Position numbers and translations under genes: made by a program. 8,473 nucleotides of DNA from a virus (taxonomy: Duplodnaviria; Heunggongvirae; Uroviricota; Caudoviricetes). A model generated the notes under the pieces. The model had not been told where the DNA came from, did not search any database, and saw only the letters and a program-made list of their open reading frames with translations. The DNA lies in IMG/VR virus record IMGVR_UViG_2663762857_000030, positions 1 to 8,473 of that record; one strand, given 5' to 3'. How positions within the stretch are numbered: the stretch's first letter is position 1; each line of letters starts with the position of its first letter. This document shows positions 4,678 to 4,884 of the stretch, in pieces.

Positions 4678-4884
4678 ATGGCTGAAGAGAAAAAAGGCGG
4701 TGTTTCGGTGTACATAAGCCCCGACATCGTGAAGGCGCTCAAGGAACGCCACCAGCAGAACGTAAAAGCAGGCATTGCGGCAGGACTTGATCCGCTGGCG
4801 ATGGTTGAGCCGTCAACAGGCTGGCAGGTACGCTCCTATTTACGCGCGGCGCTGGGCATAAATCAGACTCATGGGGGTGAATAA
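4678..4884 (+). CDS. Hypothetical protein (68 aa) translationally coupled to the capsid gene
   Basis: ATG 4678 after AGAGGA (4662-4667); its TAA (4882-4884) overlaps the capsid ATG (TAATG). No family recognised. Confidence 0.55.
   Translation: MAEEKKGGVSVYISPDIVKALKERHQQNVKAGIAAGLDPLAMVEPSTGWQVRSYLRAALGINQTHGGE

Follow-up and report, generated by a model that had tools for sequence, protein, structure and literature searches.

The first gene of the capsid module in EcCICFT073-type phage satellites encodes a small protein that looks more like a CopG-type DNA-binding autoregulator than a capsid scaffold

A small conserved gene heads the capsid module

The DNA studied here, referred to as the window, is the whole stretch of 8,473 nucleotides (8.5 kb) at positions 1 to 8,473 of the viral record IMGVR_UViG_2663762857_000030; it is an EcCICFT073-type phage satellite, a Gram-negative phage-inducible chromosomal island (PICI) of Escherichia coli. 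All window genes point in one direction and encode, in this order, a DUF4222 protein, a D5/primase-type replicase, a single-strand binding protein (SSB), a PerC-family protein, a protein of 68 amino acids (aa), a capsid homologue, a decoration protein, a 137-aa protein and an RppA-like protein, a gene order identical to that of EcCICFT073 from strain CFT073. The subject of our analysis is the open reading frame (ORF) for the 68-aa protein. A first-pass annotation made from the sequence alone had noted this ORF and its TAATG overlap with the capsid gene, had deduced from the overlap a roughly stoichiometric synthesis of both proteins, and had suggested that an unrecognised scaffold-like or size-determining factor, or a chaperone, is encoded here. 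Both the ORF and the 1-nt stop/start overlap are present as described. The features of the gene, its leader and its junction with the capsid gene are as follows.

4446-4463, plus strand: hairpin followed by a T-run after perC, resembling an intrinsic terminator (from a scan; the fold of 4440-4520 has -36.1 kcal/mol, z = -4.5)
4478-4516, no strand assigned: second GC-rich inverted repeat, AAAAGCCCGATAAG / CTTATCGGGCTTTT, resembling a bidirectional terminator (from a repeat search and the fold of 4440-4520)
4565-4577, plus strand: upstream pseudo-symmetric element TTCATAATTTGCA, a degenerate copy 30 bp 5' of the main element, conserved across genera
4595-4607, plus strand: 13-bp symmetric element TGCACAAAATGCA with two TGCA boxes separated by 5 bp; candidate operator that overlaps the -35 region
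4616-4621, plus strand: perfect -10 hexamer TATAAT (TAAAAT in a few loci) of the putative capsid-operon promoter
4619-4655, plus strand: perfect 15-nt inverted repeat AATCATAACTGGATG / CATCCAGTTATGATT followed by T6 (-19.8 kcal/mol, z = -6.5)
4661-4667, plus strand: Shine-Dalgarno (SD) sequence AAGAGGA of the 68-aa ORF, conserved in all loci, with a long spacer of about 11 nt
4678-4884, plus strand: 68-aa ORF (c1498 family, phrog_3255), ATG at 4678 and TAA at 4882-4884
4873-4880, plus strand: extended SD sequence of the capsid gene, GGGGGTGA, inside codons G66-G67-E68 (GGG GGT GAA) of the small ORF
4882-4886, plus strand: TAATG stop/start overlap of the small ORF (TAA 4882-4884) and the capsid gene (ATG 4884-4886), sharing 1 nt

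The ORF is a genuine gene, because its frame is the only one that stays open among its relatives, its dN/dS (the ratio of non-synonymous to synonymous substitution rates) is low, it has homologues in other genera, and its position next to the capsid gene is fixed. The plus-strand frame is devoid of stop codons in 85 of 85 related loci, and it is the sole always-open frame of the six, the others being broken in at least 83 of these 85. Pairwise dN/dS values of informative allele pairs range from 0.06 to 0.38, and homologues with 50-68% identity are present in PICIs of Salmonella and Pluralibacter whose replication modules differ markedly. A lack of conservation in related elements, which the first-pass annotation had named as an observation that would speak against its proposal, is therefore not what we found. 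A minus-strand ORF of 105 aa that overlaps the gene was rejected as a gene itself; it is interrupted in 14 of the 85 loci, and the minus-strand ORFs of the region are not conserved.

The encoded protein is 94% identical to c1498 of strain CFT073 (AAN79967.1), both proteins being 68 aa in length and situated in the same gene neighbourhood, namely after ssb/perC and directly before c1499, c1500, c1501 and rppA; the two loci differ only in allele, host strain or integration site. The match to phrog_3255 extends over residues 1-68 (E = 1e-36), so that homology to the c1498 family covers the full length. Since c1498 has been tabulated as a nameless 68-aa PICI-exclusive protein (Fillol-Salom 2018, Table S2; PMC6092414), the first-pass description of the protein as unrecognised is right only in that no function is assigned to it and that standard family scans gave no Pfam or NCBIfam match; as a gene it had already been catalogued, both as c1498 and as phrog_3255. 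No published functional study was found under its accession numbers, phrog id or c-number, and in the literature c1498 figures only as part of the replaceable 'adaptable module' c1498-c1501 (PMC10530653, PMC10460865).

The family is narrow, with 14 representative clusters among 1.84 billion proteins. A tblastn search of 50,697 phage records with the small protein gave no match, a scan of one genome per species found no homologue, and a second viral scan and a metagenome scan, both seeded with the most divergent family member, returned solely the same E. coli-type loci. Every context that we examined is a PICI or a helper-embedded PICI, and judged by these sequences the family is confined to satellites. 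Rfam, tRNA and PADLOC searches gave nothing relevant.

Intact and correctly started family members have 64-70 aa, and Salmonella copies with an N-terminal Gly-rich insert have 74-85 aa. Annotated forms of 79 aa arise from a polymorphism of six versus seven T residues in the run after the leader hairpin (4645-4677; locus L119, 4932-5195), which opens an in-frame upstream ATG and adds the residues MIFLVEEEFLT; this same polymorphism accounts for the 11 extra N-terminal positions of phrog_3255. This upstream ATG is part of the leader hairpin; conservation marks the ATG at 4678 as the start, and the 79-aa annotation is probably an artefact.

The neighbourhood of the gene varies at the margins of the family. 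Helper-embedded PICIs, located within lambdoid prophages, retain a trio consisting of the small ORF and the E- and D-type genes. In loci L091 (6001-12213) and L092 this trio is followed directly by a truncated portal gene and by the lambdoid prophage genes for the S49 protease, D, E and FI, and in locus L089 the FI and tail genes come after the island; these islands adjoin prophage head and tail genes and therefore sit inside the late genes of the helper. In PICIs of Pluralibacter gergoviae, the E-like gene is split (179 + 170 aa) or uncalled (L003, 7785-8838; L002, 8207-9270) and the small ORF is intact. The most distant family member, P0043 (65 aa, locus L088), follows an iteron-rich origin and heads a different late module (L088, 430-4296). 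This module comprises a coiled-coil ORF of 55 aa, an ORF of 66 aa, a head-like protein of 315 aa (phrog_617) and a tailspike of the P22 type; P0043 has no E-type capsid gene next to it in this locus.

The junction with the capsid gene

An E-like capsid gene is located directly 3' of the small ORF in 87 of 87 loci of our first set, nearly all of these retain a stop/start overlap, and most share the identical 1-nt TAATG overlap; in one (L062) the overlap is ATGA. In Salmonella, the capsid start is called 5 nt further downstream, and TAATG is present there too. The SD sequence of the capsid gene, GGGGGTGA or GGAGGTGA among the relatives, is placed 6 nt before the capsid ATG, and its position within the last codons of the small ORF probably explains the near-invariance of the C-terminal G-G-E residues. 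Because the capsid gene carries this extended SD sequence of its own within the 3' end of the small ORF, it can initiate alone, and equal output of the two proteins is thus not implied by the overlap. Coupling through termination and reinitiation is plausible, and the roughly stoichiometric synthesis deduced in the first-pass annotation does not follow from it. A fusion to the capsid protein through a -1 frameshift on the GGGGG run is ruled out by a TGA codon (4878-4880), which the capsid frame contains after the slippery run and before the ATG.

A conserved region with a putative promoter and a candidate operator

The two stem-loops after perC are predicted to insulate the capsid operon from upstream transcription, and a 120-bp block located 3' of them is conserved across genera, above its surroundings. 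The element TGCACAAAATGCA is the sole TGCA-N5-TGCA sequence in the window and is positioned 8 nt upstream of the TATAAT hexamer. TGC[AG]-N5-TGCA is found in 81 of 92 loci, Salmonella, Pluralibacter and L088 included, located about 78-90 nt (mostly 83) 5' of the ATG, and the -10 hexamer lies 8 nt downstream of it in all 79 cases in which a hexamer was found. The upstream copy, TTCATAATTTGCA, falls within a 20-nt direct repeat (4560-4579 / 4590-4609).

This arrangement resembles the operators of the ribbon-helix-helix (RHH) repressors CopG and Arc, which consist of two inverted 4-bp boxes that are 5 bp apart (TGCA in the case of CopG), have a 13-bp symmetry and overlap the -35 region (Hernandez-Arriaga et al. 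2009; PMC2724298). The PICI site has the same geometry, its short inverted boxes being spaced by about one turn of the helix and overlapping the promoter; the site itself is seen in the DNA, and protein binding to it is predicted from the sequence.

The inverted repeat at 4619-4655 may be either a terminator-like leader RNA hairpin or a second operator that overlaps the -10 and +1 positions. Among 26 variants, 94.5% of the alignment cells are paired, three pairs show compensatory changes and G-U pairs are tolerated; the compensatory changes and the G-U tolerance argue for an RNA structure. A stem of -19.8 kcal/mol that is followed by a T-run is terminator-like. In E. coli the left arm of the hairpin overlaps the -10 hexamer, and Pluralibacter alone has a hairpin that is located wholly downstream of it.

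Two other layouts of the leader were considered and set aside. A TTCATA/TATCAT promoter proposed by a scan is not conserved in Salmonella or Pluralibacter, and its -10 sequence TATCAT is also missing in L089. A reading in terms of Q-dependent antitermination, with a promoter at 4565-4594, the TATAAT as pause element and the hairpin as terminator, was not adopted; similarity to phages and a conserved upstream -10 sequence are both wanting. A search of 50,697 phage genomes gave no counterpart of the 141-bp upstream region, which leaves an origin of the leader from a lambdoid pR'/qut late promoter without sequence support.

Signals of a ribbon-helix-helix fold

The N-terminus is the best-conserved part of the protein family and reads K-K-G-G-V-[ST]-V-Y-I-S-P-D-I-V-x-A-L. 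Within it, the invariant residues V9, V11 and I13 alternate with polar ones, so that residues 8-24 consist of an h-x-h-x-h strand (h, hydrophobic) followed by P-D-I-V-x-A-L; 10-19 residues of the protein are invariant across genera. Judged by sequence, this pattern would be a signature of the beta-strand and first helix of RHH proteins. Two AlphaFold2 predictions made with alignments of 13 and 17 sequences (predicted local distance difference test, pLDDT, 74.5 and 77.9) gave an extended segment (residues about 7-14) followed by two helices, at 15-34 and 47-58, with a loop between them.

Pfam scans of the family members at E <= 10 returned two families and no others: BrnA_antitoxin, with E = 0.017-0.13 over residues 4-24, and RHH_1, with E = 0.15-0.26 over residues 9-26. 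Both matches have the register that would be expected. With hhalign, residues 8-24 align onto residues 4-20 of CopG (E = 0.064), and residues 9-45 onto residues 4-33 of the RHH antitoxin Rv0298 (E = 0.0055). The top named Foldseek matches among viral models were NikA, a CopG-type copy-control protein, an RHH CopG-domain protein and an antitoxin. A search of all PDB sequences with the hidden Markov model of the family gave no RHH match. The RHH signals are several, weak and only partly independent, and they agree on fold and register.

A proposed autorepressor of the capsid operon

We tentatively favour, at somewhat less than even confidence, the reading that the small protein is a CopG-like RHH autorepressor of the operon for the PICI capsid module, and that the stop/start overlap would link its synthesis to that of the capsid homologue. 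From the data above we infer an RHH fold, dimerisation, DNA binding, a negative sign of the regulation and a transcription start downstream of the TATAAT hexamer. The ORF would be the first cistron of the late (capsid-module) operon in EcCICFT073-type PICIs, and its product a small dimeric DNA-binding protein of the CopG/Arc type. Its N-terminal strand (G8-S14) would read the TGCA-N5-TGCA element over the -35 region of its own promoter (-10 TATAAT, 4616-4621), and the protein would in this way repress its own gene together with the overlapped capsid gene and the genes for the decoration and Nu3-like proteins. The TAATG overlap would link repressor synthesis to translation of the operon, so that the repressor level would track the output of the capsid module, as in the copG-repB or antitoxin-toxin operons. 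Independence of the protein from the capsid is in line with such a role: two alleles of the small protein, A and B, are shuffled relative to the capsid and to other modules, and P0043 has no adjoining E-type capsid gene. The S10/T10 variant of the strand is associated with A/G and C/A variants of the boxes (TGCG or TGAA in 13 of about 20 T10 loci and in about 6 of 64 S10 loci), which, uncorrected for shared ancestry, is only a lead.

Parallels to CopG (plasmid pMV158) and Arc (phage P22) extend to gene position. The copG gene is the first of its operon and is co-transcribed with repB (PMC2724298), and the PICI protein is likewise small and encoded first in the operon that it would control. Its N-terminal pattern K-K-x-x-h-x-h-x-h-S-x-x-h-h-x-x-L aligns with residues 4-20 of CopG, and its candidate operator, known here as sequence, shares with that of CopG the two TGCA boxes, their 5-bp spacing, the 13-bp symmetry and the position over the -35 region. 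In contrast to the CopG system, a capsid homologue is encoded downstream, not a replication initiator. The same difference separates the PICI protein from the RHH antitoxins of type II systems (BrnA, ParD, Rv0298): its downstream partner is a 351-aa HK97-fold capsid homologue and not a cognate toxin, and no toxin family and no defence or toxin-antitoxin model was matched.

Several observations weigh against autorepression. None of the RHH signals is statistically significant; RHH_1 reached 11.8-12.5 bits against a gathering threshold of 20.5, and BrnA_antitoxin at most 15.9 bits against 26.1. Helix 1 of the predicted structures is long (20 residues) and separated from helix 2 by an inserted 12-residue loop, which is atypical for RHH proteins and unlike CopG and Arc, and the predicted DNA-facing residues of the strand are G8, S10 and Y12 rather than the usual set of Arg, Lys, Asn or Thr (G/S/Y versus R/T/T in the comparison with CopG and Arc). 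The RNA-type G-U tolerance of the hairpin (4619-4650) fits poorly with the inferred transcription start downstream of TATAAT. The symmetric element is degenerate in 11 of the 92 loci, among them CFT073 itself (TGCT), and the protein is intact there. Moreover, the strand of P0043 is changed (SVSVMID) although TGCG-N5-TGCA is kept upstream of its gene, so that the element is possibly the site of a different regulator, such as AlpA, PerC or a factor of the helper.

In an extension of the proposal that we consider a long shot, the RHH protein would be bifunctional in the manner of an antitoxin and bind both the TGCA operator and the PICI capsid protein. Capsid subunits or shells would titrate the repressor and thereby couple transcription to assembly, and this, together with the E-, D- and Nu3-like proteins, may permit the PICI to form its own, possibly smaller, shells with a natural helper that is neither lambda nor phi80. 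If true, it would explain why most Gram-negative PICIs keep a module that transfer in the laboratory does not need.

The capsid module is dispensable for lambda- or phi80-mediated transfer, even though a capsid homologue is present in most Gram-negative PICIs, namely in 21 of 29 reference islands (PMC10111431). Should its first gene indeed encode an autoregulator with a defined operator, the expression logic of the module would be open to direct experiment, and there would be a handle for finding those conditions or helpers under which satellite capsid genes matter. Since c1498-c1501 serves as a cargo slot in engineered PICIs, a resident repressor and promoter at this site would affect cargo expression. 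The result is nevertheless modest: the gene itself was known from catalogues, and mechanisms like the one proposed are common and well understood.

Relation to scaffolds and to the capsid protein

The C-terminal domain of the S49 head protease gpC, Nu3, is the scaffold of gpE-type capsids. The 68-aa protein has no similarity to it; the neighbouring 137-aa protein has. BLASTP aligned the latter to residues 416-493 of a 501-aa S49 peptidase (7e-10), and its match to phrog_53 covers positions 494-567 of 583. By this sequence similarity, the 137-aa protein is homologous to the C-terminal, Nu3/scaffold region of lambdoid head proteases of the S49 type and is a better scaffold candidate than the 68-aa protein; annotations list it as 'hypothetical' or 'head-tail connector'. 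The PICI hence encodes capsid, decoration and scaffold-domain homologues and is devoid of portal and protease genes.

Comparisons of the small protein by hhalign with the lambdoid S49 protease/scaffold, the PICI 137-aa protein, gpW and gpD gave probabilities below 1%. For gpW, a head-tail joining protein that also has 68 aa, the value against a prophage gpW was 0.3%, and Pfam gave no gpW match. Descent of the small gene from the lambda head genes (gpW, gpD, S49 protease/Nu3) or from the gene for the PICI 137-aa protein was rejected on these grounds. Nor is there homology or fold likeness to the known scaffolds that were compared (the Nu3/gpC C-terminus, CpmB and gp7 of phi29). CpmB of SaPI1 and gp7 of phi29 represent the class of protein that the first-pass annotation had in mind, and the likeness consists in a length of about 70 aa, a helical nature and, for the satellite, a place in an operon for helper exploitation. 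CpmB acts on the helper capsid and redirects its size; EcCICFT073, in contrast, is packaged by lambda at full size.

The A and B alleles of the E. coli PICIs are 69% identical. Their divergence is limited to codons ~15-64 (window 4720-4869 compared with L063, L066 and L082); the leader, codons 1-14 and the capsid gene are 90-100% identical. The alleles form a mosaic with sharp boundaries, which does not follow the capsid, Rpp or replication modules. Capsids found with different alleles are as similar to each other (mean 94.4%, maximum 99.4%) as those found with the same allele; the two alleles pair with near-identical capsids, and therefore there is no co-divergence of small protein and capsid. 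Among the capsids of the 50,697 phage genomes, none is more than 48% identical to that of the PICI, the best matches being lambdoid phages such as Gifsy-1, phage 21 and N15, and by this comparison the PICI capsid is an old satellite lineage and not a recent capture from a helper.

Published genetics of EcCICFT073

Derivatives of EcCICFT073 in which c1498-c1501 was exchanged for cas9 or melA still form transducing particles with phi80 (PMC10530653, PMC10460865). The first-pass annotation had held that a deletion without effect on particles would refute it; these replacements go part of the way. Wild-type EcCICFT073 is packaged by lambda into phage-sized capsids, and deletion of c1499 or c1500 does not relieve the interference of the island with lambda (PMC6092414). 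Deletion of rppA (c1503) alone restored lambda plaques, with titres nearly as high as on an island-free host (PMC6739421). The published pBAD series begins at c1499, so that c1498 is absent as a lone gene from the published interference screen; the forward primer for pBAD18-c1499 anneals at window positions 4772-4792, inside the 68-aa ORF. The suspicion that the published c1501::tetA marker broke the module was dismissed, since the primer puts the marker just 3' of the c1501 stop codon and leaves the module intact.

Alternative roles of the small protein

A capsid-assembly accessory, i.e., a mini-scaffold, size factor or chaperone for the E-, D- and Nu3-like proteins whose action perhaps depends on some natural helper besides lambda and phi80, is possible but in our view unlikely. 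The linkage to an E-like capsid gene holds not only in the first set but in all later loci from Escherichia, Salmonella and Pluralibacter except L088, with the overlap mostly kept, and helper-embedded PICIs hold the minimal trio of small ORF, E and D. The predicted helix-loop-helix of about 70 residues would make the protein comparable in size and class to CpmB of SaPI and the scaffold of phi29 (PMC6893505), the old and distinct capsid lineage implies that the module is maintained for some purpose, and the published pBAD clones did not assay c1498 singly. Set against this are the lack of sequence or fold likeness to scaffolds, Nu3, gpW or gpD, the presence of a separate Nu3-like gene in the module, and the free combination of the A and B alleles with the same capsids. 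The best-conserved part of the protein is an N-terminal extended strand and not a helical capsid-binding motif at the C-terminus, no E-type capsid gene lies beside the distant homologue in L088, and the genetic data on phage-sized packaging by lambda, on lambda interference after loss of c1499 or c1500, and on phi80 transduction by c1498-c1501 replacements point in the same direction. The scaffold, size-factor or chaperone role advanced in the first-pass annotation is accordingly not borne out.

The RHH-like features that we invoke for autorepression would equally suit a regulator or interference factor directed at the helper, which binds helper DNA or protein instead of the PICI promoter and, for example, represses or retimes late or capsid genes as CapR of PLE does. 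Satellites do encode small regulators of helper late genes, CapR among them (PMC10111431), two divergent alleles with conserved flanks resemble alternative specificities, and c1498 stood outside the published interference screen. We nonetheless judge this improbable: loss of rppA by itself sufficed to restore lambda plaques to nearly island-free titres (PMC6739421), the conserved operator-like element lies in the PICI's own promoter, and the 141-bp upstream region is without counterpart in the phage genomes. Least probable by far is that the ORF is a mere leader with an irrelevant peptide, serving only ribosome reinitiation on the capsid gene. The conserved stop/start overlap and the use of the 3' codons as capsid SD sequence would suit such a leader, yet a dN/dS well below 1 contradicts it as a mark of purifying selection, as do the residues that are invariant across genera, the length held at 64-70 aa, a fold predicted with confidence (pLDDT 78) and the strong SD sequence that the capsid gene has of its own.

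The surrounding island

The remaining genes and features of the window that were assigned are the following.

1436-3190, plus strand: D5/primase-type replicase, followed by iterons
4884-5939, plus strand: homologue of the PICI major capsid protein (lambda gpE family; c1499 homologue), 351 aa, HK97-fold (Phage_cap_E, PF03864, 6.9e-50)
5951-6286, plus strand: homologue of the head decoration protein (gpD family; c1500 homologue; PF02924, 1e-17)
6299-6712, plus strand: 137-aa Nu3-like protein (c1501 homologue; phrog_53 match, BLASTP match to S49 peptidase)
6875-7309, plus strand: 144-aa RppA-like protein (c1503 homologue), which redirects the small terminase subunit (TerS) of the helper; last recognisable gene of the late region

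The block 4400-6300 was found in 644 of 5,426 complete E. coli genomes (~12%). In the best-matching genome, it is part of an integrase-bounded island with cspD and clpS on either side. Clusters of short tandem repeats (CTGTCTACC, ACTATCTACCC, TAAGGTAGA and others) occupy positions 3182-3433, directly 3' of the primase gene, and are the expected iteron-type replication origin of the PICI. The RppA-like protein is 99% identical to the CFT073 copy, and the published RppA also has 144 residues. PADLOC matched this protein to the helix-turn-helix (HTH) model mad1 of the MADS system (E = 5e-5), and weak HTH matches to Nu1 and MerR were found as well; the mad1 match probably reflects generic HTH similarity rather than a defence function.

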